From positions 1 to 11,507 of the IMG/VR virus record IMGVR_UViG_2657245521_000005: DNA of 11,507 nucleotides; one strand, given 5' to 3'. Origin of the DNA: a virus. Its lineage: Duplodnaviria; Heunggongvirae; Uroviricota; Caudoviricetes. Both the position numbers and the translations under genes were made by a program. A model generated the notes under the pieces. The model was given only the letters and a program-made list of their open reading frames with translations, was not told the DNA's origin and searched no databases. The stretch's first letter is position 1, and every line of letters begins with the position of its first letter. Shown here piece by piece: positions 1-11,507 of the stretch.

Positions 1-584
1 TTTCCCAGTTTAACCAATAACTCATCTCGATTTGGAATCATAAGCGCTTTTCCAGTCAAGCAACGTTTTCTGGTTCCTTGTTCAAGGGATAAAAAAACAG
101 GGTTGTTATTAAGTCTCTCAGTTATTATATCTTTTTGTTCATGATAAAAATCCAATGCTTTCGTATTATCACTAGATGTAAATAACTCAATTCTCTTTAC
201 ACAATCATTCATGTGCATGACATTCAACTTTGCTGACCACTCCTCAGTTGAATCTGGATTCTCAGATAAATACATAAACAATAACTCAGCTTCCAGAATC
301 GCTCTTACATGAGGTGCAATCGCCGAAAAATCCCAAAAGTCATAATCCCGCTTAGCCCATCTTGATTTTGGTACGTTGGAAATCATTATTGAAGCATGAA
401 TGCAGATTCGTGAAAAAATGTATGTAGACCACCCTTTAAAAGCCTCAGCCATTCGCACACCAACCCCCTGACTTACAGCATTCGCTTCACATACAGCTTT
501 ATCAAACTCCCTTAAGTAGTGATGGAAGTCATCCATCGAAAAATCGTTTCGTTCAAGTGGATTTTCGGGATTATCTATTTTCAT
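1..584 (-). CDS. Hypothetical protein, N-terminal 194 codons only (C-terminus beyond window start); AT-rich cargo (moron) gene downstream of Q and its terminator
   Basis: Hand translation of the reverse strand from ATG at 584..582 (MKIDNPENPLERNDFSMDDFHHYLREFDKAVCEA...) stays open for 194 codons to the window edge despite AT-rich composition, where stops are frequent by chance. AGGTGA Shine-Dalgarno lies just upstream. Absent from the supplied ORF track, presumably because no in-window stop exists. No recognisable motif. Confidence 0.6.
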   Translation of the reverse strand, partial: MKIDNPENPLERNDFSMDDFHHYLREFDKAVCEANAVSQGVGVRMAEAFKGWSTYIFSRICIHASIMISNVPKSRWAKRDYDFWDFSAIAPHVRAILEAELLFMYLSENPDSTEEWSAKLNVMHMNDCVKRIELFTSSDNTKALDFYHEQKDIITERLNNNPVFLSLEQGTRKRCLTGKALMIPNRDELLVKLG

Positions 585-633
585 ACTTCACCTATTTAAA
601 ACAATTGGTTTAAATCGGTGAATTATAACGCAA

Positions 634-655
634 AAACCCGCTCATTGGCGGGTTT
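634..655 (-). terminator. Intrinsic terminator-like hairpin (tR'-like) between Q and the cargo gene
   Basis: Minus-strand reading gives AAACCCGC-CAATGA-GCGGGTTT followed by TTGCGTTAT: an 8-bp stem with GC core, 6-nt loop and U-rich tail. The tail is U-rich only on the minus strand, matching the direction of Q and the downstream gene. Confidence 0.45.
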
Positions 656-688
656 ATAAAACTTTGGCAACATATCAAATACGCTTCA

Positions 689-717
689 AATATGGCTTAT
701 TTTGTTGCATTTTGCAA
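689..717 (-). promoter_or_regulatory. Putative late promoter (pR'-like) immediately downstream of Q
   Basis: Minus-strand TTGCAA (717..712), 17-nt spacer, CATATT (694..689). Position between the Q stop (748) and the terminator hairpin matches lambdoid pR'/qut/tR' layout. Sequence match to sigma70 consensus is only moderate. Confidence 0.2.
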
Positions 718-747
718 GCGCGTTTGAAGGAGATAGTGAAATTTACT

Positions 748-1437
748 TCACATTTCTGCCACTTTGAGGGCTTCTTCTTCCTCATAGTATTCAAGAGCCA
801 TTGCCAACGCAGATTCATCAAGCTGGGTAAAAGCGGCCTTTAACCCAGCCCAGTGCCCTGAATAGACACGCAACCATGTCGAACGATCAACGCTAACCAT
901 GCGGGCCAACGCTGCACCAGCATAGTCTTTATAGGTTTCATTATTTCTGGTTGCGGCAATTTCCTGCCCTGCCAGCCATACCAGGCCAATCAGTTTCTTT
1001 ACTACGCGCTCCTGAAGGGAATTATCACCCAGGCATTTCTGATAAGTTTTCCAGACGTATTCACACATCATCACTTGGTGCTTATAGCTAAGGTCAAAAC
1101 CGTAGCAGTACCGCAACCAGGCCTGCTGGTATCCACTAAGCGCGGACACTGCCCTACGCCACGGCGCGGACTCAAATTCCGCATCTTTTATCGGCGGCAT
1201 TGGCCTGCAGCGGCTGCGTGTTTCCAGTACATACAATGGCGCGGAAAGCGAGTTAACAAAGCGAGGCCCCTTCTCTCCTTCGAGTTCGACGAGATGAATT
1301 CCACGGCGCGGGGTGGCATTTTTGTCTGCTGGTGGGTGTTCACTGAAAGCCTCAAGCTGCCCTTTTGTTCCCCCAGAGAGGTCAGGTAGCGCGCGGCGCA
1401 ATTCTATTCTTACAAAATTCAGGTCTTGTTGATTCAT
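748..1437 (-). CDS. Antitermination protein Q-like late-gene regulator
   Basis: ORF 748..1458 begins with GTG abutting the upstream stop; internal ATG at 1437 (MNQQDLNFVRIELRRALPDLSGGTKGQLEAF...) has GGAG upstream and is the preferred start. Assignment rests on recalled resemblance to the 21/82-type Q family and on synteny: last gene of the early operon after the nin-like genes, followed by promoter-like and terminator-like elements and a cargo gene. Confidence 0.55.
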   Translation of the reverse strand: MNQQDLNFVRIELRRALPDLSGGTKGQLEAFSEHPPADKNATPRRGIHLVELEGEKGPRFVNSLSAPLYVLETRSRCRPMPPIKDAEFESAPWRRAVSALSGYQQAWLRYCYGFDLSYKHQVMMCEYVWKTYQKCLGDNSLQERVVKKLIGLVWLAGQEIAATRNNETYKDYAGAALARMVSVDRSTWLRVYSGHWAGLKAAFTQLDESALAMALEYYEEEEALKVAEM

Positions 1438-1458
1438 GCTTCTTTGCGCTCCATACAC

Positions 1459-2487
1459 TTAAGCTTTCGCAATTACGCCGATCGCCAGCGCCCGATCCAT
1501 AAAACGCAGTAGCAGCTCAAGCTGCGTACCATGCTTCTGCTCGAATGCCGATACATCGGCGTGTAACTCGTCGTGGCACTCTCTGCACAGAGGGATCACG
1601 AAGAGGTCATGGGCTTTTGTTGCTGTACCACCCATACCGTGCCCTACGATATGGTGCGGATCATCTGCTGGCCGTCGGCAACACTCACAGGGTTGTGTTT
1701 TTACCCAGCGGGTGTAAGTCTCATTTATCCAGCGGCGTCGCTTTGGCCTGAGCATGAAAGATTCCGGAGACTCCGGATCAACAGAGAGCGTGAGGATCTT
1801 CTTCGCCTTCTCCTGCACGAGGCTGGTTGCAGTAGCGGAAGGCACAATGTCGCTTTCCCTCATGACCGAGCGGATCTTCTCATCCGGAAGGCGTAGCCCC
1901 TTGTGCGCAACGCTTTCCGGAATAACATCAGCCAGGTCGTTTCTGACCATCCACCAGCACAGTTCCGGAAGCGTCAGGATATGCGACTCGGGAAAACCAG
2001 AATCACGCCGAATGACTTCCAGAATCCAGGATACCAGGTTTCCTGCCGCTATACCTGCAAGCCGTTCGGTATGCTGCCCCGACAAAGTGTGATCGCAATG
2101 CCAGCACAGGCGAATACTTCCTGGTGGGTGCCGCATTGTTGTGAAGTTCTTGTCGTGCCACGATGAATGTGGCCACTGGCATTCAAACCGAGAACTCAGC
2201 CACTGCTCAAGGGAAGGAAGTCCACCGGCACGCTGAATAACCCGCTCATTCCCGAAGACCTGCCGCATTACCGGATCATCAGCCAGCGGCTGAATGGCTG
2301 CCGGAACAGCCCCGGTACTGAATGACGCCATTTCTTCTGGTTCAGGCTCGAGCAGAACGCGACCACGCATGAAGAGGTGCATCAGTTTAGCACCGGGACG
2401 GAACAGCACAATCCCCATACGATGGGCGATCTCGGGGGTAAGCAGAGCTCTCACGCGACCTGCCCCCTGGCAATGTGTTCTGCCCAC
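1459..2487 (-). CDS. DUF968/YdfU-like prophage protein with C-terminal HNH-like Cys/His cluster
   Basis: 342-codon ORF directly upstream of Q, as ydfU precedes quuQ in E. coli Qin prophage (recalled synteny). C-terminus carries CECCRRPADDPHHIVGH...CRECHDELH, a CxxC...HH...CxxCH pattern typical of HNH/zinc-finger nuclease folds. Start uncertain: GTG at 2487 (GGTGG SD) overlaps the upstream gene by 37 nt; in-frame ATGs also at 2418, 2382, 2370 and 2331. Confidence 0.5.
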   Translation of the reverse strand: MGRTHCQGAGRVRALLTPEIAHRMGIVLFRPGAKLMHLFMRGRVLLEPEPEEMASFSTGAVPAAIQPLADDPVMRQVFGNERVIQRAGGLPSLEQWLSSRFECQWPHSSWHDKNFTTMRHPPGSIRLCWHCDHTLSGQHTERLAGIAAGNLVSWILEVIRRDSGFPESHILTLPELCWWMVRNDLADVIPESVAHKGLRLPDEKIRSVMRESDIVPSATATSLVQEKAKKILTLSVDPESPESFMLRPKRRRWINETYTRWVKTQPCECCRRPADDPHHIVGHGMGGTATKAHDLFVIPLCRECHDELHADVSAFEQKHGTQLELLLRFMDRALAIGVIAKA

Positions 2488-3134
2488 AGTCCACCAATCC
2501 AGCGCACGCCTTTCGCAGTGAAACGTGCCTGGCTGAATGCATGATTTGAGGTTACGGATGTGCCGGTTTTCACTTCAAAACGGCCCGCATCAATATGCTG
2601 ATACCGTGGGGTCATCGTTCCACCAAGGCGATACATGATGTCGTTCTCAAGGAGGAATAACCGCAGATCTGGCTCTTTTGCCTTAAGCAGTTTTGCCACC
2701 TGGCGGAATGACATTGACCCACTGGCTGTACAGTACCGATCAACAAACGCTACCTTCGGCGCCGCGGCAGCCAGTTCGTTAGTCAACTGCTGTTTTTGTT
2801 CTGCAAGGTCAGCGGCAAGACGTAGGGCTTCAGAGAATGATTGAGGAATCGTCTGCTGCTGTGCCTGCTCAAGCTCCTGCCAGCGATCAACCAGACGCGC
2901 GGTAAACTCCGGCGACAGCTGCGCGACAACGATATAACTGTCCCGCTTCCCTATCAGATAAACCGATACCGACTGATTGAGGTGATTTTTAACTTCCCCC
3001 ATTGGGGGGAGTTCAATAACACCGCGCTCTGCCAGGCGTTCAATGGACCGTTTAACATGGTCATGTCGTGATTCCACCAGCTCAGCAATATCGCTGCTGG
3101 ACATGGTTAATGCTGTTGTTGCTAATTGGCTCAT
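2451..3134 (-). CDS. Phage regulatory protein Rha / antirepressor with KilAC-type C-terminal domain
   Basis: N-terminus MSQLATTALTMSSSDIAELVESRHDHVKRSIERL matches the Rha-type HTH signature (recalled). C-terminal YCTASGSMSFRQVAKLL...DIMYR...RYQHIDAGRFEVK resembles the ANT/KilA-C module. ATG at 3134 with GGAG 9 nt upstream is preferred over the ORF-track start at 3173. Confidence 0.7.
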   Translation of the reverse strand: MSQLATTALTMSSSDIAELVESRHDHVKRSIERLAERGVIELPPMGEVKNHLNQSVSVYLIGKRDSYIVVAQLSPEFTARLVDRWQELEQAQQQTIPQSFSEALRLAADLAEQKQQLTNELAAAAPKVAFVDRYCTASGSMSFRQVAKLLKAKEPDLRLFLLENDIMYRLGGTMTPRYQHIDAGRFEVKTGTSVTSNHAFSQARFTAKGVRWIGGLWAEHIARGQVA

Positions 3135-3147
3135 ACTTTTCTCCATA

Positions 3148-3534
3148 TCAGGCGGCCGCACCCGCCGGTTCATATCTGCTGATCGTTATCTCTACCCGAC
3201 CTTTCGGCACTACGGGTCCCCATTCCACCAGCATGCGCTTAATCTGGCTGTCATCTTCCCAGACACCCGCATGCGTCAGCGCGTCAAACAGGGCTTTGTT
3301 GTAATTATCGATATCCCGGCGGCGCGCATCCGGCGGGTACAGAGTGATTTCTACCGCAGCCAGTTCAGTCGATGGCTTCGGGAGACGTCGTAATTGCTCA
3401 ATGATCGCCACGCAGGCAGCGCTCTGGTATTTACGGCCTTCAGCGCTAATGAGGTGACGACCAGCCAGCGCCCCCTTGTTAGGAGCGCGCCAGTAAGTGT
3501 TCACGCTGGGTGGAAATGGGAGTATGAGCCTCAT
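3148..3534 (-). CDS. rusA: Crossover junction endodeoxyribonuclease RusA (Holliday junction resolvase)
   Basis: 128 aa, MRLILPFPPSVNTYWR...RRRDIDNYNKALFDALTHAGVWEDDSQI... aligns by eye with E. coli RusA including the conserved acidic residues. GGAGG SD 5-6 nt before ATG at 3534. Confidence 0.85.
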   Translation of the reverse strand: MRLILPFPPSVNTYWRAPNKGALAGRHLISAEGRKYQSAACVAIIEQLRRLPKPSTELAAVEITLYPPDARRRDIDNYNKALFDALTHAGVWEDDSQIKRMLVEWGPVVPKGRVEITISRYEPAGAAA

Positions 3535-3648
3535 TAAAAGCCTCCGTCATAATTCCTGAAACATACCTCAACTTTCCCGCTATAGTGACGAACACGTTGA
3601 ACAACATCCGAAATAGGCGCTATACCGGCAGGGCGATAAAAGACTGTT

Positions 3649-4971
3649 TCACGCATGAGTTACCCCCTGCATGCTGTCGACAAGACCACGCGCAATTGTG
3701 ATTATTTCGCTGGTGGACATTCGTTCCAGCCAGAGTTGATTGATGTTGGCTTTCAGCTTGTTCTGCTGTGATTCATCCAGCATGTCAGCACCATCCACCT
3801 GGTCGAATACAATTCCAACCTCCAGTGGCCATATACGGGACTCGGGAAGCTGATCGGCTACTGGTTTAGCTTTCTCACGGATGTGCATGCGGATCTGGCG
3901 AATATTGGACCAACTGGAAACATCCAGGCTTCCCATAGCTGCAATGAAATCAGTACTGTTCATGCCATATTCACCAGATGCTTCAAGGGCAACAGTACGA
4001 ATACGTTCCGACATATCCAGGCGCGCAGCAGCGTCATCGAATTCAATCGACAACAGCCACTCATCCACACCGAGCAAAATACTCTCACGAATAAGCAGCT
4101 TCGCTTTGTCGATCGTTAATGGTGATACCTGAGTGAATTCCGGTGCTTCGACAGAATCCGCCGCCCAGGTATGCCCAAACTTCGATTCACTGAATGTGTA
4201 TTCTTCTTTATCGCCGAACGCAGCTCTAACGCATGCCCACGCCTCAACACCGCTGATATCAAAAATATCTTTCTGGGTAAGTGGCAACTCTGCTTCTGGC
4301 TTGTCAGCTACAGGTGGTGTGGCGGTTGCTGGCTGAGGTTTGCTGGTGGCAAACTGTGCCAAAGCCATAAACGCGCGCCCTTTTGTTTCCAGTTCTGTGC
4401 GGTTGATATAGCTGAATCGCTCGCCACGCCATGACTTATCGAATACAGCTATGGCTCCGGAAAAAAACGCGCTGGTGGGCTTCTGTTTTTCGTCAGCAGG
4501 TACAAACCACACTGGCAGATCGAAACCAATGCGCCCGCGAATGAATACAATGTGATCGGCATCTTCCGGCCACCACGTTTCACTCGGCGCGGCTTTTATC
4601 AGGAATACATAGCGACCGCCCTTCTCGCGCTGGGTTGCTGCGTACTTCATGATGTGCGTCATACCAGTGATCGCCTGTTTCTCGTGGTACTGCGAGCGGC
4701 TATATGGAGGGTTGGCAAAAGCCGCGCCACCCAGTTCTGCCAGACGTTCAGACCAGTCCTGCGTCAGTGCGTTATCTTCGGCGGTGTACCATGCCGGGCA
4801 TTTCGCGTTGTCGTCGTCAGCAAACAAGTCCAGAACTAATGGACCAAATAGCGCGTTGATACCCCAGAAAAGCAGATCCGGTGTCCGCCACTGATCGCCA
4901 ACTTCTTTCAATTCGTGAGCTGGTTTTGAACGCAGTTCGGCCAGCGCGCGGCAGTATTTGTTTTCAATCAT
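3649..4971 (-). CDS. Phage-type DNA N6-adenine methyltransferase (Dam-like) fused to a ~230-aa C-terminal domain of unknown function
   Basis: N-terminal ~190 aa contain WRTPDLLF and the catalytic NPPY motif (FANPPYS) of phage Dam-type MTases. A Pro/Ala/Thr-rich linker (KPQPATATPPVADKPEAE) precedes an unassigned domain. The start ATG overlaps the upstream stop as ATGA (4968..4971), suggesting translational coupling. Confidence 0.75.
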   Translation of the reverse strand: MIENKYCRALAELRSKPAHELKEVGDQWRTPDLLFWGINALFGPLVLDLFADDDNAKCPAWYTAEDNALTQDWSERLAELGGAAFANPPYSRSQYHEKQAITGMTHIMKYAATQREKGGRYVFLIKAAPSETWWPEDADHIVFIRGRIGFDLPVWFVPADEKQKPTSAFFSGAIAVFDKSWRGERFSYINRTELETKGRAFMALAQFATSKPQPATATPPVADKPEAELPLTQKDIFDISGVEAWACVRAAFGDKEEYTFSESKFGHTWAADSVEAPEFTQVSPLTIDKAKLLIRESILLGVDEWLLSIEFDDAAARLDMSERIRTVALEASGEYGMNSTDFIAAMGSLDVSSWSNIRQIRMHIREKAKPVADQLPESRIWPLEVGIVFDQVDGADMLDESQQNKLKANINQLWLERMSTSEIITIARGLVDSMQGVTHA

Positions 4972-5900
4972 CCTCTGAATCCCTCTGGAATTTTGGTATC
5001 TACCGGGCCGAACTTCATCGGGTCATGTTTCTTCTCGCCCCAGCTTTCACGAGGGGGACGGCCTTTCTTATCCCAGCGGAGCCCGCTTTGCAGATAACCC
5101 TCAAATTTTTTCGGCCCAAACAGAGTTTCAGGCCGCATGTACTGATACTGCGCGTCATTGCCGTTCCAGTGTTCATGCTTGAGGTCAATCACCAGCGTTA
5201 AGTCGCTGACGGTATAACCTTCACGCAGACGGGCACGTATGTTTTCCAGAGAGGTTTTAGATTTCTGGTACCGGGAGCCGCTTACCTGGTTCAAATGAGT
5301 TAAAACCAGGATGGCGTTATCAGTGATCAACACCTCAGGGTCTGGTTGCGGCGCAACCGGACAAGAGGGGTTAATGATCTGTTTGTGGTGATCTGAGTAA
5401 TGATCTGTATAGAGAATAGGTTCCGCGACTTCGCGGTTAGGGTTCCGCGATTCTGCGTTTTCGGTTCCGTGATTCTGCGGAATAGGTTCCGCGACTTCGC
5501 GTTTCCCGTTCCGCGATTCTGCGGAATCCAGCGTTGCCGGGAATAAAACATTGATTAGCGCTTCGCCATTGATACGGTAATGCGTCTTTTTCGTGCCGTT
5601 TACCTGTCGCTGCGCCTTTTCAACAACCCCTGGTAGCCAGCGGGTACAAATCTTGTTTACCAGGCGCTGCACCTGATCTTCACTCACGCCGCGAATCTCT
5701 GCCGCAAGCTCGCTGTGCTCTTTATAAAACCAGCCATCATTCAGATCTGATTTACCAGACCAGAACACGAGCTGGTTTAGCACAGCGCCCAAAGCATGCG
5801 CCTGCTGATCGCCGGAGAAATAATCGAGGTACGGGACCGGAATGGTGATGCTATTCCTTTGCCCCGACAGCGATTGAACGATTTCAAATATCTGGCTCAT
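4968..5900 (-). CDS. Replication initiation protein (O-like) with origin iterons embedded in the coding sequence
   Basis: 310-aa ORF. The central linker (SAESRNGKREVAEPIPQNHGTENAESRNPNREVAEPI) is encoded by five tandem dyad-symmetric repeats, as the ori iterons sit inside lambda O. The C-terminal segment (HEHWNG...YMRPETLFGPKKFEGYLQ) resembles the conserved C-terminal domain of prophage replication proteins (recalled). Confidence 0.7.
   Translation of the reverse strand: MSQIFEIVQSLSGQRNSITIPVPYLDYFSGDQQAHALGAVLNQLVFWSGKSDLNDGWFYKEHSELAAEIRGVSEDQVQRLVNKICTRWLPGVVEKAQRQVNGTKKTHYRINGEALINVLFPATLDSAESRNGKREVAEPIPQNHGTENAESRNPNREVAEPILYTDHYSDHHKQIINPSCPVAPQPDPEVLITDNAILVLTHLNQVSGSRYQKSKTSLENIRARLREGYTVSDLTLVIDLKHEHWNGNDAQYQYMRPETLFGPKKFEGYLQSGLRWDKKGRPPRESWGEKKHDPMKFGPVDTKIPEGFRG
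5419..5523. repeat. Five 22-bp-period iterons (GGTTCCGCGAYTYYGCGG-like, each with internal dyad symmetry CCGCGA/TCGCGG); putative replication origin
   Basis: Direct reading: units start at 5419, 5441, 5463, 5485 and 5507. An adjacent stretch on the gene-downstream side (5382..5418) is about 68% AT with two GATC sites (5390, 5402). The ORF 5327..5551 (-) in another frame is just the translation of these repeats. Confidence 0.7.
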
Positions 5901-6069
5901 GATCGTCCGTTATCTCCCTGAACTTTCGCCTGAAATGCTCAAGTGGGCTGAAGCATTCGTGCGGGTAGCCATCACGCAGATAGATAACGCGCTGTGTTTC
6001 AGGTTCCCAGCGGATAACACGGACTGGCACTCCACGGTAGTCTTTGAACCTTCGGTTAAGTTCGCGCAC
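5884..6069 (-). CDS. Small basic hypothetical protein (61 aa) directly upstream of the replication gene
   Basis: GTG start at 6069 with GGAGG 11 nt upstream; 3' end overlaps the replication-gene start by 17 nt. No recognisable motif, so this could be a spurious ORF. Confidence 0.3.
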   Translation of the reverse strand: MRELNRRFKDYRGVPVRVIRWEPETQRVIYLRDGYPHECFSPLEHFRRKFREITDDHEPDI

Positions 6070-6241
6070 AGGCGTTTTGCCCTCCGGTTGTAGACCCCCA
6101 CAATTGAAACCGCCCTACTGTGGTTACACGGAACCCAGCGGTTTGATAATCTGCGTTCATACCGAAACAACGGAGTACCCGAAACAGGGATCATCCTGAG
6201 TTGCGGTAGACGGTTAAAAGCCGTTAAACTATTCATGCGGA

Positions 6242-6790
6242 TTATTTCTCCATACTCGAAGAGTTGTTCGCCAAGGCGCCCGGAGCTGCACACTCGCGGG
6301 CGTCACTCTTTTCTGGAAGGCAGTAAACACGGGCAATCAAATTCAGAAAGGTCATCAGAGTTACCCTGAACTGATATGCAATGTCGTTAAGGCTCTGCCA
6401 CTCACCCTTATCAACAACCCCATCGTCGATATACCAACGGTAAGCGTTGACCAGTTCTCCTAGACGCCCCACCAGCTCGGCCAGCTTTAAGCCAATTTCT
6501 TCGTTTTCGTCATCTGGCACCGCACCCGGAACGTGTATCCCGTTATCTGTTTGACGAGAAAACGCATCAGCTATGTAGCTGACACCGGCGGCTTTCTGTA
6601 ACACCATCGCCCATCCCATAGGGAAGATCTGATCCCCGTCGACGCGAAGGCGGTTAAACAATGCGTTCTCTGTCACCCCCAACCATTCCGCCGCTTCGGC
6701 GTAGCCACCAGGCAGATCGGTAATCGTTTTTTTAATCGCTACCACCAGCCAGGCTGGCTGACGTTCGACTTTCCATTGCGGTTCGTTCAT
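6242..6790 (-). CDS. CII-like phage regulatory protein (HTH-containing)
   Basis: Preferred start is ATG at 6790 (MNEPQWKVERQPAWLVVAIKK...) with GGAG 8 nt upstream; the longer ORF-track start at 6877 adds a low-complexity extension. The segment GGYAEAAEWLGVTENALFNRLR looks like an HTH. Located between cro-like and replication genes as cII is in lambdoid phages. Family assignment from memory only. Confidence 0.5.
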   Translation of the reverse strand: MNEPQWKVERQPAWLVVAIKKTITDLPGGYAEAAEWLGVTENALFNRLRVDGDQIFPMGWAMVLQKAAGVSYIADAFSRQTDNGIHVPGAVPDDENEEIGLKLAELVGRLGELVNAYRWYIDDGVVDKGEWQSLNDIAYQFRVTLMTFLNLIARVYCLPEKSDARECAAPGALANNSSSMEK

Positions 6791-6875
6791 TACTGCAACT
6801 CCATTATTGGCGCCGAACTTCCTGACGGTGATAGCCTGCAAGCTCTCACACCAACAGAACCGAAGGAGGTTCGAC

Positions 6876-7112
6876 ATGTCTGTAAATTCACTGCCTTACG
6901 GCAAGTCTCCCGAAGAAGCCGCTCACGATCTGGCCATGAATCTTGTCTTGTCTGGTCACTTCAAAACATTCCAGAAGTCGCCAGAAGAGGTTTTTCAGTT
7001 GATCACCAATGCAGAACTGGTCTTCAGTGAGCTTTACCGAAACAAACTGAAGGAAATAGAGTCCGCCAGATCAAAAGAAACCGAAGAGCAATATCAACGT
7101 ACGCAGTGCTAG
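6876..7112 (+). CDS. Small hypothetical protein (78 aa) encoded antisense to the early operon
   Basis: Perfect AGGAGG SD at 6864..6869 with 6-nt spacer to ATG 6876. Acidic/helical-looking product (MSVNSLPYGKSPEEAAHDLAMNLVLSGHFKTFQKSPEEVFQ...). Its stop overlaps the stop of the convergent minus-strand ORF at a shared CTAG (7109..7112). Confidence 0.5.
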   Translation: MSVNSLPYGKSPEEAAHDLAMNLVLSGHFKTFQKSPEEVFQLITNAELVFSELYRNKLKEIESARSKETEEQYQRTQC

Positions 7113-7354
7113 CCATGAACAAACGAAAGATAGAACGTTGAATAACCACGGGCGGCGCTTTCAACTGCCGCCTGTATTTCCTCCGCGGATCTCCCTCTAA
7201 GGATCATCTCGTTTATCAGCTCGCCAATAAGGGGAAGGACAATTGGCTGGAATGACATGTAAACCCGCATCTTTCCTTCGGAAATGGTTATTTGTCCTTC
7301 ATCGCTTTTAGCGGTCACGCTGTTTGTATCTTTTGTCTCGCTGCTGTTACCCAC
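7109..7354 (-). CDS. Small hypothetical protein (81 aa) downstream of the cro-like gene
   Basis: GTG start at 7354 preceded by AGGAG with a 6-nt spacer. Co-oriented with the cro-like gene and the early operon. No recognisable motif. Confidence 0.45.
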   Translation of the reverse strand: MGNSSETKDTNSVTAKSDEGQITISEGKMRVYMSFQPIVLPLIGELINEMILRGRSAEEIQAAVESAARGYSTFYLSFVHG

Positions 7355-7383
7355 GGTTAACTCCTCTCTTTTGTGGTTGTTGA

Positions 7384-7626
7384 TTAAGCTGCTGAATCTG
7401 CAGACTTTTGGAAAACATCAGGACGCAGTCTTTCTTTTGGGATGCCAGTAACGCTCTCAATGTACTGAGATTGCTTTATTGGCGACCTTTTTTCTCTGTT
7501 GAGCCAGTTCCATACCTGTTGTTGTTTAACTTCCTTCCCGGAACTTGCAGTTAGTTTCCGGGCTAACTCAGACTGGCCACCAGCAGTTTCAATTGCCTCT
7601 GAAAGGGCTAACTGCTCAGGTGTCAT
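7384..7626 (-). CDS. Cro-like HTH regulator (YdaS-type)
   Basis: Preferred start ATG 7626 (MTPEQLALSEAIETAGGQSELARKL...RLRPDVF) with GGAGA SD and 7-nt spacer. The pattern AIExAGGQSxLAR...ERLRPD resembles the YdaS/Cro-like HTH family (recalled). Divergent from the CI-like repressor across an operator-rich spacer. Confidence 0.7.
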   Translation of the reverse strand: MTPEQLALSEAIETAGGQSELARKLTASSGKEVKQQQVWNWLNREKRSPIKQSQYIESVTGIPKERLRPDVFQKSADSAA

Positions 7627-7763
7627 AGTTTTTCTCCTGTGGTTTGAGGTAAAAGTTGTTGGCACCATTGATCATACAACCTAAACAACTTTTACCACAA
7701 CTTTTAGGTGTTGGAAAGCTAAAACATAAAGTTGTAATCTCTCCTAATACAGGGGGTAAAGTT
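7627..7763. promoter_or_regulatory. Immunity switch (OR-like): operator half-site cluster with divergent pR-like and pRM-like promoters
   Basis: The 8-mer AAAGTTGT occurs at 7652, 7728 and 7758, and its reverse complement ACAACTTT at 7685 and 7697, all within 137 bp. Candidate pR (minus): -35 TTGTGG (7700..7695), 18-bp spacer, -10 TATGAT (7676..7671). Candidate pRM (plus): -35 TTGGAA (7711..7716), 18-bp spacer, -10 TAATCT (7735..7740). Confidence 0.55.
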
Positions 7764-8450
7764 GTGAATACACTTGCGGAACGACTAAAAATAGCTAGAG
7801 AGAAGAAAGGCATGAGCCAGGCTCAGTTAGCCGAGCTAATAGGCCTGTCTCAACAATCTGTGGCGAAAATTGAAAATGGAGATACGCTTCAACCTAGAAA
7901 GATCAAAGATATTGCGAAAGCTTTAGATGTATCCCAAAAATGGCTACAGCTCGGAATTGAGGAGAATGGCTCTATTTCTGATTTTGTAGTTGAGGAACTT
8001 GAAGAAGCAAAACTTGATCCTGAAGTATTTGCCAACATACCCGTTCTCGATGTTGAGTTCTCTGCTGGCAATGGATGTGAAGCCGAAATTGTGGAATCAG
8101 TTGTTGATTCGTTCCCTCTTCGTCGTTTCGATCTTAGAAAAGCTGGAGTCAGTCCTGCTAACGCAAGAATCGTAAAGATTTGGGGCAACAGCCTTTTGCC
8201 AGTATTGAATAATGGGGATCATGTCGCGATTGACATGTCACAGTCGAAACCTATCAGAGATGGTGATTTATACGCTGTTAGAGATGGAGTTTTACTTCGA
8301 GTTAAAGTTCTTATCAATCAACCAGATGGTGGTTTGATACTGCGGAGTTTCAACAAAGAAGAGTACCCGGATGAAGTACTCAACTTTGATGAAAGAAGAG
8401 CCAGAATACACGTTATTGGTCGCGTGTTCTGGTCTTCACGTTCATGGTAG
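7764..8450 (+). CDS. CI-like prophage repressor (HTH_XRE N-terminal domain plus LexA-like S24 autopeptidase domain)
   Basis: Preferred start GTG 7764 (GGGGG SD, 7-nt spacer); the ORF-track start at 7656 would lie inside the operator region. HTH: LAERLKIAREKKGMSQAQLAELIGLSQQSVAKIENGD. Candidate Ala-Gly cleavage site in FSAGNG. S24 motifs: WGNSLLP (Ser) and LLRVKVL (Lys). Confidence 0.85.
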   Translation: MNTLAERLKIAREKKGMSQAQLAELIGLSQQSVAKIENGDTLQPRKIKDIAKALDVSQKWLQLGIEENGSISDFVVEELEEAKLDPEVFANIPVLDVEFSAGNGCEAEIVESVVDSFPLRRFDLRKAGVSPANARIVKIWGNSLLPVLNNGDHVAIDMSQSKPIRDGDLYAVRDGVLLRVKVLINQPDGGLILRSFNKEEYPDEVLNFDERRARIHVIGRVFWSSRSW

Positions 8451-9323
8451 AGCGTGAAAAAGCATTTCTTCTGAAATGATTTTTAACTTAGCCCCTTCAT
8501 CATCTCTATATGAGACTGCTTTTTCTATTTTCCTTCCGTGACTGGAGAACTTCCAGTCACGCGAGGAAAGAGTACCAATTACGAGAAAATCAATTCTCTT
8601 TGTGATTCCGCTGGAAATCAGTCCATTATTCTTTTTAATTAGGTCTTCAACATGTGCTCTCTTTCCTGCCAAAAAAACACCCGTTAAGCAAAATGTTTTA
8701 TTTTCAACAGAAACTTCAGCAGTATTATCTAATGGTAATTTAGTAGAAAGCCCATCTACGACGCCGCTTGCAAGGTCACAACCAGTAAAATCTACCAGCG
8801 CCTTGTGTAGATTTTCACTTTCTTCAGTGGTGATGATCCCATCGCTCAGAATCTCTTTTACTAAAGCGTATAGTTCCTTTCCTGGATAATTACTTTTTAG
8901 CGCCCCGTTCTGTGTTAACCACCAGTCCAGGTATCTCACTTCTTCTTCACTTAAGGTTCGATCTGATATTAAACCCTTGCAAAGACCATTCAACAGATGC
9001 AGATCTGACTCACTGGAGAATAAATCCACATCGGGTATATCGAGTATTTGTCTTTGTATATCATTAAGATGCAGTTTTAATTCACCACGCTCATCATCAG
9101 AAACAACACCATCGGCCAGTATTTTAGAAACCCTAACACTTAGACTCTTGATAACACCATTTCTAATGGTTTGGTTGGCTTCAAGTAGCCAAGTATCAAG
9201 ATATAGCACCTCTTCATCCCGCACATGTCCATCGGCAAGAATCCCATCAATAATGCTGATTAAATTTGCAAAAAGCTTATTTCTATTTTGTGTGTAGTTA
9301 AAAACGTAGAGCTTGTCTTCCAT
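8442..9323 (-). CDS. Hypothetical protein with four TerB-like helical repeats and a C-terminal BRCT-like domain; candidate immunity-region accessory (defence or exclusion) gene
   Basis: Preferred start ATG 9323 (MEDKLYVF...) with AGGAGG SD. Four repeats of I-L-[AS]-D-[GR]-x-[VIL]-x-x-[ED]-E at aa 28, 68, 118 and 158 (ILADGHVRDEE, ILADGVVSDDE, LISDRTLSEEE, ILSDGIITTEE). C-terminal KTFCLTGVFLAGKRAHVEDLIKKNNGLISSGITKRIDFLVIG...KIISEEMLFHAL resembles the BRCT domain of NAD-dependent DNA ligase. Markedly AT-rich relative to flanks; 3' end overlaps the repressor stop by 9 bp. Confidence 0.75.
   Translation of the reverse strand: MEDKLYVFNYTQNRNKLFANLISIIDGILADGHVRDEEVLYLDTWLLEANQTIRNGVIKSLSVRVSKILADGVVSDDERGELKLHLNDIQRQILDIPDVDLFSSESDLHLLNGLCKGLISDRTLSEEEVRYLDWWLTQNGALKSNYPGKELYALVKEILSDGIITTEESENLHKALVDFTGCDLASGVVDGLSTKLPLDNTAEVSVENKTFCLTGVFLAGKRAHVEDLIKKNNGLISSGITKRIDFLVIGTLSSRDWKFSSHGRKIEKAVSYRDDEGAKLKIISEEMLFHALP
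8463..8486 (+). terminator. Weak terminator-like hairpin just after the repressor stop
   Basis: CATTTC-ttct-GAAATG followed by ATTTTTAA. The stem is short and AT-rich, and the element lies inside the 3' end of the convergent gene on the other strand. Confidence 0.2.
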
Positions 9324-9375
9324 ACAGCCTCCTTTTTTGAACATCCTTACATTCAGACGCCCCACAATCAAACCA

Positions 9376-9456
9376 CATAAAGTTGTTGACATAACCATTA
9401 TTCACAACTAAATTACACCTTAAAGTTGTTATTACGATTTACAACATTACAACTAG
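9376..9456. promoter_or_regulatory. Second operator cluster (OL-like) with near-consensus rightward promoter (pL-like)
   Basis: Plus-strand -35 TTGACA (9386..9391), 17-bp spacer, -10 TAAATT (9409..9414). AAAGTTGT at 9379 overlaps the -35 and recurs at 9422 near the predicted start site; ACAAC-type half-sites at 9404, 9441 and 9449. Same 8-mer as in the cI/cro spacer. The divergent promoter for the 8442..9323 gene must also lie here. Confidence 0.5.
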
Positions 9457-9559
9457 CCATAAGCAACAGCGAACAGGCAGGACGCCCACGAAGTAGCCGC
9501 CGGTGGCGTATGAATAACCGGATGATTCGCTCAATAAAGTTAGGTAGGGGAATTTCACG

Positions 9560-9772
9560 ATGAATGCAGCACAACGCCGAAGGGCTTATCACAAACACCC
9601 GAAAGTTGGGGACACTGTAATTTTACGAGGCATTCCTCGCCTAGTACTGGGTCCGTGTACGTTCAACAGCCTTACTGGCGAAGAGCGTAGCAAACCTTCG
9701 GTAAGCCGTGTCAGGGTTCAAATGACTGGCGGCTCAACAGCTGCACCACTCGTACGTAATTTAAAGTTTTAG
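9560..9772 (+). CDS. Candidate small N-like protein with N-terminal arginine-rich motif (speculative)
   Basis: First ORF after the pL-like promoter, 70 aa. N-terminus MNAAQRRRAYHKHPK resembles the arginine-rich RNA-binding motif of lambda N (DAQTRRRERRAEKQ, recalled). Upstream CGCTCAATAAA is a weak boxA-like match. SD is poor (GGGG about 10 nt upstream). Could be non-coding. Confidence 0.3.
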   Translation: MNAAQRRRAYHKHPKVGDTVILRGIPRLVLGPCTFNSLTGEERSKPSVSRVRVQMTGGSTAAPLVRNLKF

Positions 9773-10558
9773 CGATAAACAGGTGTCTTCGGGAGGGGTT
9801 ACGGGCTGGAGTGACTACCAGCATCGACAGCTCTATCCGACGAAACGGAACCGTCTAACCCGCGGTTGTCGGTGAAAAGTACCGTAGGGATGCCAGCTAG
9901 TCACTGGCCCCCGCCCGAAGATACCTACCACCGCGCCTGATGTGGTTAAAAGCAGGCCAAAGCAATAACAAGTACTTCCCTGTTCTGGCGGCCCGGTGTT
10001 TTCCCACTTGTCCGGTCACCGCCAGCCTTTTTCAGGGCACAACGACGAGAGCATTGACGAGCAAGGCATAAGTGCTGGTTCGATTCCAGACAGTCCCATT
10101 CTGTTGGGAGGGTTGGGCAGGGAAAAGGTTCGTTCGATTCGAACACCGGCAGTGCTCTCTTCGTTGTGGTGAATGCGCAGGCTGATGCGCTAAACCGTGA
10201 GGGAGTGTCCCGAAAGGGTGCGTCACTGGTAATCAACCCATGCCGGAATATCGTAGTACCGGCCACCACAACCAAATCACGCTTAGGACCGTGATAACCG
10301 TAGTTCCAGTATTGCTGTGTGTAGTCTTGGCGGTACCAGGGTCTTCAACCTTATGCAAGGGGGACGAAGATAATGTTCTACCTCGGTACCGCCCTTTTTA
10401 CGCAACAGAAAAGGGCATCACCGGGCGACGGGCTCATAACCCAATCCACCCTGGCAAAAGACAGCGGTCTCTGCAAGCCGCCGACCAATGCAGGTGTCCT
10501 TCTCTGTTGTGTATGGAGAAAACACGGCGGTGGAAGCCGCCTTAACGAGGGTAAAACC
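9773..10558 (+). other. GC-rich ORF-poor transcribed leader; candidate structured non-coding RNA or decayed gene remnant
   Basis: Hand translation of all three plus frames from 9781 to 10240 gives a stop every 20-65 codons; track ORFs on both strands are short, overlapping and of junk-like composition. Contains GC-clamped hairpins (CUUCGG 9787..9792; CCC-GAAA-GGG 10209..10218), a palindromic GTTCGATTCGAAC (10131..10143) and a G3N1G3N2G3N2G3 motif (10106..10122). Confidence 0.3.
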
Positions 10559-10930
10559 ATGAGTAATGACCGCATGACCGTAGTGCCAGATTTTCTTGGC
10601 GAACTGGATGCCGGCGTGTTCATGAACAAAATCGCGGCAGCACTTAATACCACCGCGCTTGGCGTTCTGAACAATGGCAACAAAGGCAAAGTAGTCCTCA
10701 CCTTTGATTTTGAGCGTATGGGTAATTCCGTTGAAGAGAAGCGCGTGAAGATCAAGCACAAGCTGAACTACAGCACCCCGACACCGCGTGGTAAAGCCTC
10801 CGAAGAGGACACAACCGAAACCCCTATGTGGGTTAACAAAGGCGGGAAGCTCACCATCCTGCAGGAAGACCAGGGCAACTTGTTTACCCTCGGCGGGGAT
10901 CCGGACGGAAAGTTACGCGCGGCGAAATAA
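10559..10930 (+). CDS. Hypothetical protein (123 aa)
   Basis: ATG 10559 with GAGGG SD and 7-nt spacer (MSNDRMTVVPDFLGELDAGVFMNKIAAALN...). The ORF-track start at 10373 adds a Cys/Trp/Gly-rich junk-like extension and is rejected. No family recognised. Confidence 0.55.
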   Translation: MSNDRMTVVPDFLGELDAGVFMNKIAAALNTTALGVLNNGNKGKVVLTFDFERMGNSVEEKRVKIKHKLNYSTPTPRGKASEEDTTETPMWVNKGGKLTILQEDQGNLFTLGGDPDGKLRAAK

Positions 10931-10987
10931 GCCGCGATTGATAGCCCTTAGTTTCAGTTTTTCTACATCTATCTTTAAGGAATTTTT

Positions 10988-11425
10988 ATGTCTCAGTTAG
11001 ACAGCGGTACCTTCAAGCAGGTCAAAGACCTGGTTCTTTCCGGTTATCACCTGAATGATATTCATGGCCTGGCTTGCCCGACCGCATTACTGCCAGAGGG
11101 TACTGGCGTTGAAAGCCTCGAGCGTTTTTCTCTGGAGCGTTTCCGCTTCCGCGGTGCCATGACCACGACCAGCATTGAAGATTTTGCTCGTTATTCAAAA
11201 GGCTATGCCAGCGCCACTGAAAAAGCACGCTGCTTTATTGACGCTGACCATATGACAGCCCGTTCAGTATTCAACATTGGCACACTCGATAACCCCGGTC
11301 ATGCGGACAATGTTGCATCCATCACCCTAAAACAGACCGCACCATTCCGTGCTCTTCTCCAGATCAACGGTGAACGTCTGAAACAAAAACAGATCGCCGA
11401 GTGGCTGGAAGACTGGAGCGATTAA
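10988..11425 (+). CDS. Hypothetical prophage protein (145 aa)
   Basis: ATG 10988 with AGGA SD and 7-nt spacer; coding-like composition (MSQLDSGTFKQVKDLVLSGYHLNDIHGLACPTALLPEGTG...). A vague recollection of DUF2303/YfdQ-like prophage proteins is not strong enough to name it. Confidence 0.6.
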   Translation: MSQLDSGTFKQVKDLVLSGYHLNDIHGLACPTALLPEGTGVESLERFSLERFRFRGAMTTTSIEDFARYSKGYASATEKARCFIDADHMTARSVFNIGTLDNPGHADNVASITLKQTAPFRALLQINGERLKQKQIAEWLEDWSD

Positions 11426-11507
11426 CCGGAAATCAGCATGACAGGATGCGGGACTTTGATCCGGACAGCCCCGAAATAAAATTCAGTGATCGCAGGGCAG
11501 CCCTTGA

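Follow-up and report, generated by a model that had tools for sequence, protein, structure and literature searches.

Phage Dam-type enzymes of the PF05869/TIGR01712 family, to which we take the phage HP1 and T1 methylases to belong, are adenine DNA methyltransferases, and GATC is the target of characterized members such as these two. Adenine and cytosine methylation can also be combined in one protein, as in Dmt of phage P1, in which an adenine and a cytosine methylase are naturally fused. Two C5-cytosine methylases, M.AquI and M.EcoHK31I, consist of two polypeptides, of which the small subunit carries the catalytic motifs IX and/or X (PMC3404938). In this study, we analyzed a Dam-family gene in an 11,507-nucleotide (nt) stretch of DNA (hereafter the window), positions 1 to 11,507 of the IMG/VR record IMGVR_UViG_2657245521_000005, a virus of the Caudoviricetes. 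The gene is a complete 440-codon open reading frame (ORF) on the minus strand with an ATG start, and its product continues far beyond the catalytic domain (Table 1). Sequence comparisons indicated that this long tail is built from two separable and independently mobile modules, here termed M1M2 and the C-module, and not from a single domain of 230 residues.

The tail was divided in this way because each module occurs without the other and on unrelated proteins. A search of 5.8 billion proteins with residues 201–440 returned 611 matches of several lengths, and a few relatives in their alignment held all three parts together. Specifically, 293-residue relatives from Citrobacter and Salmonella comprised the Dam core and only the last ∼60 residues, namely the C-module; relatives of ∼397–412 residues comprised the Dam core and the equivalent of residues 226–375, namely M1M2, and then ended. 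The latter form, Dam-M1M2 without the C-module, was common: 441 stretches of IMG/VR matched it. Either module was present in only 61 clusters when 1.84 billion representative proteins were searched exhaustively by profile; local hidden Markov models assigned the C-module by itself to 32 clusters, M1M2 by itself to 18, Dam with the C-module to five, Dam with M1M2 to two and all three parts to two, and the remaining two were fragments. M1M2 and the C-module showed no relation to each other in hhalign comparison. Apparent stand-alone M1M2 or M2 plus C proteins were rejected as artefacts, being genes split by scaffold gaps or frameshifts.

Both modules carried conserved motifs. M1M2 was marked by WAC...AAFG.K.EY.FSESK.AHTWAADS and W.N.R..R, with 16 invariant columns (alignment A6), and the C-module by WP.EV...L...IN.LWLE, in which W, E, L, L and E were invariant (alignment A4). 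A Cys-His-Asp triad in M1 was considered as well and set aside; its residues never vary in the close alignment, but the distant relatives P0142, P0143 and P0147 have another residue in place of the Cys. Residues 226–440 had no Pfam match even at E ≤ 10, no NCBIfam match and no PDB sequence match in profile searches. Residues 379–434 matched phrog_16025 (E 1.4e-11), and the module occupied the extreme C-terminus in nearly all representatives; it also matched the C-terminal part of phrog_111. Both phrog_111 and the 85-residue family phrog_16025 are named "DNA methyltransferase" by association only, and M1M2 had no PHROG match. Thus, the libraries searched offer neither a Pfam or NCBIfam family nor a structural relative for the tail modules, and only the C-module is represented among the matched PHROGs. 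A first-pass annotation of the window, made from the letters alone, had described a single unassigned C-terminal domain of ∼230 residues behind a Pro/Ala/Thr-rich linker. The linker was recovered as described and a well-known accessory domain was sought in Pfam, NCBIfam, PDB and Foldseek searches and not found; it was the single domain that had to be given up. Literature searches returned no paper describing either module, and as far as the searched libraries and papers show, the modular dissection, the link to ParB-like proteins and the near-obligate pairing of the C-module with a C5 methylase (both set out below) are undescribed.

An AlphaFold2 (AF2) model of residues 222–440 was an all-helical chain with a mean predicted local distance difference test (pLDDT) score of 83 and a low-confidence break at model residues 150–160, between the modules; the linker that precedes them differed in length and sequence among relatives. 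M1M2 and the C-module are accordingly predicted by the model to fold independently and to be joined by flexible linkers. Against the orthologue of Escherichia coli Nissle 1917, the ratio of nonsynonymous to synonymous substitution rates (dN/dS) was 0.12 in M1M2 and, from only ∼13 substitutions, 0.18 in the C-module, compared with 0.15 in the Dam core; both modules are therefore kept by purifying selection. Such values speak against the proposal that the tail is functionless gene-fusion debris in a decaying prophage, which we regard as highly improbable. Loss of the neighboring C5 methylase, the many database entries that are fragments or split genes and one deletion chimera (P0014, see below) would fit decay, but dN/dS in both modules is as low as in the catalytic core, the predicted folds are confident, residues are invariant across relatives of 30–45% identity, and the same architecture occurs in isolated phages, the full-length form being carried by Eeyore and Flotzy.

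The same data bear on the possibility that the C-terminal half as a whole serves DNA binding or target recognition, which would give the enzyme a new sequence specificity or higher processivity. The very small size of PF05869 cores, about 170–217 residues, is in keeping with this proposal, as is helix 2 of the C-module, which is rich in K, R, H and N in the free 85-residue forms. It is nevertheless quite unlikely: the modules occur apart and on unrelated catalytic domains, a 217-residue relative with a core 75% identical does without them, the tail is acidic here (net charge −16, isoelectric point (pI) 4.56), and the flexible linker leaves no confident packing on the core. A DNA-mimic role for the acidic tail was rejected on account of the pI of the C-module, which runs from 4.4 to 9.1 across relatives.

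The most informative property of the C-module was its genomic neighborhood. It was restricted to enterobacterial prophages and ended four unrelated kinds of N-terminus: the Dam core, an MT-A70 methylase (P0168), a class-I methylase (P0165) and an unidentified one (P0160). In prophages of Citrobacter, Enterobacter, Klebsiella and Salmonella, the commonest form was a free 85-residue protein; 805 matches came from a profile search, and the best 120 of the 805 were all 71–91 residues long. In all 25 loci read for the forms named below, a C5-cytosine methylase of 620–715 residues lay directly downstream, with an overlap of 4 or 8 nt or a gap of 4 nt, and in one of them the C5 gene was frameshifted. 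This pairing was seen for the free ORF, the 293-residue Dam-C, the ∼440-residue Dam-M1M2-C, the MT-A70-C, the class-I-C and the P0160 forms, and in the isolated E. coli phage Eeyore the C5 gene directly follows the full-length Dam-M1M2-C gene. Among 19 species-representative genomes found with the C-module of the window, 14 had the C5 methylase directly downstream. At Dam-M1M2 loci without the C-module, the next gene encoded a C5 methylase in 0 of 78 and a LexA_DNA_bind-like protein in 76 of 78, and no C5 methylase lay downstream of the 217-residue enzyme of a Stx2 phage. Overall, C5 methylase adjacency was 39/48 at loci with the C-module vs. 0/79 at loci without it (Fisher p ∼1e-23), counted over related prophages that are not phylogenetically independent events.

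In relatives, the junction between the two genes was intimate, as the final codons of the C-module also hold the start codon and ribosome-binding site of the C5 gene. A programmed frameshift into the C5 gene was considered and rejected on inspection; the GGGGG stretch is 6 nt upstream of the ATG, as expected of a standard ribosome-binding site, and does not form a slippery sequence. The partner C5 methylases themselves carry motifs I, IV (SPDC), VI, IX (RMLQPHELYKAQGFPD) and X (GNAVPPP); because they hold this full motif set, the C-module is not a detached catalytic piece. Pfam detects these 620–715-residue proteins weakly. Their long central region contains four T[IV]TAGG repeats (L030, 4875–6809; L014, 5255–7297; and other loci), and by sequence they are probably enzymes with several target-recognition regions. 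A metagenomic protein of 405 residues, P0014, is a chimera: behind the Dam core, M1 and a portion of M2, it continues in frame with the ∼90 C-terminal residues of the C5 methylase, motifs IX and X included. It looks as if a deletion had taken out the C-module together with most of the C5 gene.

M1M2 pointed in a different direction. It also makes up the last 140 residues of phage ParB-like proteins with a ParB/Srx N-terminus and HTH_ParB, of which gp48 of Pantoea phage AH07 and several metagenomic representatives are examples, with an M1M2 identity of 36–45%. In 20 IMG/VR prophage loci, genes of this ParB-M1M2 type occupied the same slot as the methylase, after the Phg_2220_C replication gene and before RusA. 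The C-terminal region of canonical ParB is its dimerization domain; since M1M2 would stand in its place, the most economical guess, by analogy, is that M1M2 is a self-association or tethering domain. In phage AH07 (L003, 1625–3699), the ParB-like-M1M2 gene gp48 is followed by gp49, which encodes a queuine/archaeosine tRNA-ribosyltransferase-like (DpdA-like) protein. This order hints at a pair of a ParB-like protein and a DpdA DNA-modification enzyme, with the adjacency being absent in the 20 other ParB-M1M2 loci. M1M2 as a general marker of a downstream DNA-modification enzyme was rejected: the next recognizable gene was RusA, directly, in 11 of the 20 loci, and none had a DpdA-like gene.

Taken together, the explanation we favor, with a confidence only a little above even, is an orphan Dam enzyme that carries a docking or regulatory subunit (the C-module) and a tethering domain (M1M2), and nearly all of the uncertainty lies in the functions of the modules. 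First, the Dam core would be made after prophage induction and would methylate the replicating phage DNA, and this methylation could protect the packaged DNA from restriction in the next host. Second, the C-module, without catalytic function itself, would serve the C5 methylase as a docking or regulatory subunit that translational coupling would place beside the nascent C5 enzyme; in fusions with an adenine methylase encoded upstream, it would hold the two enzymes together. Third, M1M2 may serve oligomerization, self-association or tethering, replacing in ParB-like proteins the usual C-terminal dimerization region.

Several points weigh against this explanation. Gene order is the only thing that suggests a docking role, and the loci behind the association are related, as noted above. 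Nine of the 48 C-module loci, this window included, keep an intact C-module without any C5 methylase. Foldseek comparison of the tail with PDB and with BFVD, a viral library, had no match at E ≤ 0.001 and provided no functional lead; a full-length AF2 model from a 15-sequence alignment (pLDDT 56, predicted template modelling score 0.34) rendered the Dam core poorly and showed no domain packing; and the substitutions behind the C-module dN/dS are few.

The C-modules without a C5 partner may indicate that the module has a use of its own, and they are among the observations in line with a different role, in which the C-module is a protective factor, obligatorily synthesized ahead of the C5 methylase, against the harm of foreign cytosine methylation, for example an inhibitor of Type IV (McrBC/McrA-like) restriction, and in this window an independent anti-defense module. 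Its constant position upstream of the C5 methylase and its translational coupling to it, whatever it is fused to, its existence as a free 85-residue protein, its integrity in the nine C5-less loci and its confinement to enterobacterial prophages, as for a host-specific target, are all compatible with such a role. However, it has no similarity to any known anti-restriction protein and no PADLOC or PHROG functional match beyond the name given by association, its range of pI does not describe a conserved DNA mimic, and the idea is purely contextual; we consider it unlikely. A broader version of the docking explanation, which is tentative and on balance doubtful, would make the ∼60-residue C-module a portable adaptor that joins an upstream enzyme (Dam, MT-A70 or class-I) to a large, possibly multi-specific C5 methylase in a non-covalent adenine and cytosine "methylation complex," or else an obligatory antidote for carrying a C5 methylase in hosts with methylation-dependent restriction. 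M1M2 would then be a second, so far undescribed self-association or tethering domain, common to DNA-modifying and ParB-like phage proteins.

In this window, the C-module is orphaned, the C5 gene being absent and only the shared start codon left. No C5-methylase homologue was found anywhere in the window. The end of the protein, ...DSMQGVTHA, nearly matches the Citrobacter ...GSMQGVTHA, and it is in the last codons of the Citrobacter type, CAG GGG GTA ACT CAT GCG TGA, that the C5 gene has its ribosome-binding site and ATG. Here, the ATG at the position of the C5 start codon in relatives opens a 40-residue ORF (MRETVFYRPAGIAPISDVVQRVRHYSGKVEVCFRNYDGGF), which gene callers also called on public contigs and which had no PHROG match. 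Beyond the shared ATGCGTGAAA, this ORF agreed with the C5 gene at 14 of 25 nt in fixed register, and a local alignment did not score above shuffles. The ORF is probably what remained after a deletion or replacement of the C5 gene just past its start. The tail of the Nissle protein differs (...NMRGEAA) and its gene runs straight into RusA. The last ∼18 codons differ between the window (...IARGLVDSMQGVTHA, 3649–3720) and Nissle (...AASELVRNMRGEAA, L001 7250–7400) in genes that are otherwise 94% identical, and these differing codons mark a recombination breakpoint inside the C-module.

The catalytic half is conventional. By every sequence test, the enzyme belongs to the PF05869/TIGR01712 phage Dam family: PF05869 aligned at profile positions 3–167 of 169 (E 9.6e-45; 152.7 bits vs. 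a cut-off of 28.1), the NCBIfam equivalog TIGR01712 (phage_N6A_met) scored 205.5 bits vs. a cut-off of 97.05, and PADLOC labeled the protein MTase_II (527 bits). NPPY motif IV (residues 87–90, nt 4702–4713) and the motif-I-like VLDLFAD (residues 46–52, nt 4816–4836) were both conserved in the alignment of relatives (A1), and the core, residues 1–210, is intact. GATC is, by analogy, its most likely target; the window contains 55 GATC sites vs. ∼44 expected, which shows no avoidance and is not informative on methylation specificity. No restriction endonuclease or other defense nuclease was detected among the window ORFs by Pfam and PADLOC scans, and no restriction endonuclease model of PADLOC matched any of them. 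The neighbors are a replication initiator, the 40-residue ORF, RusA, Ant, DUF968 and Q, with no nuclease among them; this is the arrangement of an orphan methyltransferase and not of a Type II restriction-modification system. The enzyme itself is thus ordinary, as orphan phage methylases are common and routinely annotated, and an anti-restriction role for the Dam core would be reasonable.

The first-pass annotation, which gave no strand, had already recognized the N-terminal NPPY methyltransferase, the absence of an adjacent cognate restriction endonuclease and the ATGA overlap with the replication gene, each of which our analysis bore out; its further step, from the overlap to stoichiometric co-expression with replication, did not hold. 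Five of the seven junctions in the operon overlap by 1–17 nt, namely DUF4222/Rep (17 nt), Rep/methylase (4 nt), methylase/40-residue ORF (8 nt), 40-residue ORF/RusA (1 nt) and Ant/DUF968 (4 nt), and those of RusA/Ant and DUF968/Q are short gaps. In relatives, the methylase follows a PerC-like, a lambda-O-like or a hypothetical gene instead. Because overlaps are generic and the upstream gene varies, the overlap says nothing specific about a stoichiometric link to Rep. It is therefore very unlikely that the methylase works with the replication initiator, being co-expressed through the ATGA coupling and recruited by its tail to the phage replisome or origin. The overlap with the DnaD-like/Phg_2220_C gene and the same order of Rep and methylase in Nissle and several Citrobacter prophages would suit this idea, but overlapping junctions are the rule in this operon, module-bearing relatives adjoin lambda-O/P, DnaT/DnaC-like or PerC-like genes with no constant replication partner, and hhalign found no relation between the tail and the Rep protein.

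The methylase gene sits in the early-right operon (replication, nin, Q) of a lambdoid prophage of Enterobacteriaceae. The minus-strand order is Cro-like, CII-like, DUF4222, replication initiator, methylase, 40-residue ORF, RusA, Ant/KilAC, DUF968 and Q, with a divergent LexA-type repressor gene on the plus strand in the same region, and these surroundings are typical of a lambdoid early region. The identical 440-residue protein was called on 10 public contigs. At the nucleotide level, the gene was ∼94% identical to a prophage gene of Nissle and of 24 further complete E. coli genomes among the 5,426 searched, annotated as "phage N-6-adenine-methyltransferase." Elsewhere in the window, a 318-residue protein encoded on the minus strand at 8442–9398 adjoins the LexA-type repressor gene and has a C-terminal BRCT domain (PF00533, E 1.4e-5); it matches phrog_3989, whose function is not known, and weakly PADLOC PDC-S48. 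It may be a moron expressed during lysogeny.

Table 1. Positions in the window of the methylase gene, its parts and its immediate neighbors.
Feature	Position	Strand	Evidence
Methylase gene: orphan N6-adenine DNA methyltransferase (phage Dam family) and its two accessory modules	3649..4971	-	PF05869, TIGR01712
Catalytic Dam domain, residues 19–199	4375..4917	-	PF05869, TIGR01712, motifs
Pro/Ala/Thr-rich flexible linker KPQPATATPPVADKP, residues 211–225	4297..4341	-	sequence; pLDDT <50 in full-length model
Module M1M2, residues 226–375, all-helical, ∼150 residues	3847..4296	-	AF2 pLDDT ∼83–94; alignment A6
C-module, residues 376–440, three-helix, equivalent to PHROG 16025	3652..3846	-	phrog_16025, alignment A4
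40-residue ORF, probable remainder of the C5 gene	3534..3656	-	ATG 8 nt inside methylase 3' end; stop overlaps RusA start
Replication initiation/DnaD-like protein (Phg_2220_C), upstream neighbor	4968..5900	-	PF09524 E 9e-24; phrog_428, phrog_9773
ATGA overlap of Rep stop codon and methylase start codon	4968..4971	-	sequence
RusA Holliday-junction resolvase, downstream neighbor	3148..3534	-	PF05866 E 2e-16

The comparisons also exposed misleading labels, with the Dam core named as a reductase, the C-module as a "DNA methyltransferase" and YfdM as a methylase. Dam-family methylases are labeled "phosphoadenosine phosphosulfate reductase" in several phage records, including those of Eeyore (L029) and ST64B (L002, sb44). 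The label probably stems from the name of PHROG 33262, a fusion family with the Dam core as its C-terminal part, and looks like a mis-annotation that is being passed on. The ST64B record has a note that can be read as equating E. coli K-12 YfdM with the C-module; this was rejected, as BLASTP showed that YfdM corresponds to the N-terminal 89 residues of the Dam core. In MG1655, yfdM (b2356, prophage CPS-53; L006, 8113–8388) encodes 91 residues annotated as "putative methyltransferase," which are 81% identical to residues 2–90 and end at NPPY. A phage-propagation phenotype has been ascribed to YfdM acting as a Dam methylase (preprint 10.1101/413146); a fragment truncated in this way is unlikely to methylate DNA.

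About half of the methylase protein consists of two conserved modules outside Pfam and NCBIfam, and one of them, the C-module, is a near-obligate companion of a large phage cytosine methylase, whatever its fusion partner. Should the C-module turn out to be a docking or regulatory subunit or an antidote, this would account for the joint deployment of several DNA methylases by temperate enterobacterial phages, and it would provide a handle for predicting phage methylation phenotypes from sequence.

Compared with the described members of the phage Dam family, the enzyme has the same NPPY core, no partner nuclease and an early-operon place in a temperate phage. The enzyme of a Stx2-converting phage (Stx2a_1447, 217 residues, no tail) is 75% identical over residues 1–203. 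In contrast, those enzymes are about 170–217 residues long and end after the core, whereas this one continues for 230 residues in two modules. The 293-residue Citrobacter/Salmonella enzyme (PHROG 111; PADLOC MTase_II PDLC03332) shares the Dam core, the C-module with a near-identical C-terminal tail and the slot after the Phg_2220_C replication gene, but lacks M1M2 and is followed, with an 8-nt overlap, by a 644-residue C5 methylase that is absent from the window. The free 85-residue PHROG 16025 protein has the same three-helix C-module; unlike the tail studied here, it stands as an ORF of its own, has an additional amphipathic helix at the N-terminus and no adenine methylase attached, and always overlaps the start of the C5 gene. 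The usual context of the C-module, with the C5 methylase directly after it and an overlapping start, is thus not that of the window. The ParB-like proteins have a homologous M1M2, at the identity given above, in the same slot between replication genes and RusA, but bear ParB/Srx and HTH_ParB at the N-terminus where the Dam core stands here, and they have no C-module. Among the two-part systems, M.AquI and M.EcoHK31I resemble the C-module loci in that a small polypeptide is encoded beside or overlapping the C5 methylase gene and may be needed with it, and differ in that the C-module has no C5 motifs and the large C5 methylase of relatives keeps I, IV, VI, IX and X. Finally, P1 Dmt pairs an N6-methyladenine and a 5-methylcytosine methylase in one phage unit, as the Dam-C/C5 relatives do, although the enzymes of the relatives are separate polypeptides, possibly bridged by the C-module, and the window carries the adenine enzyme without the cytosine one.

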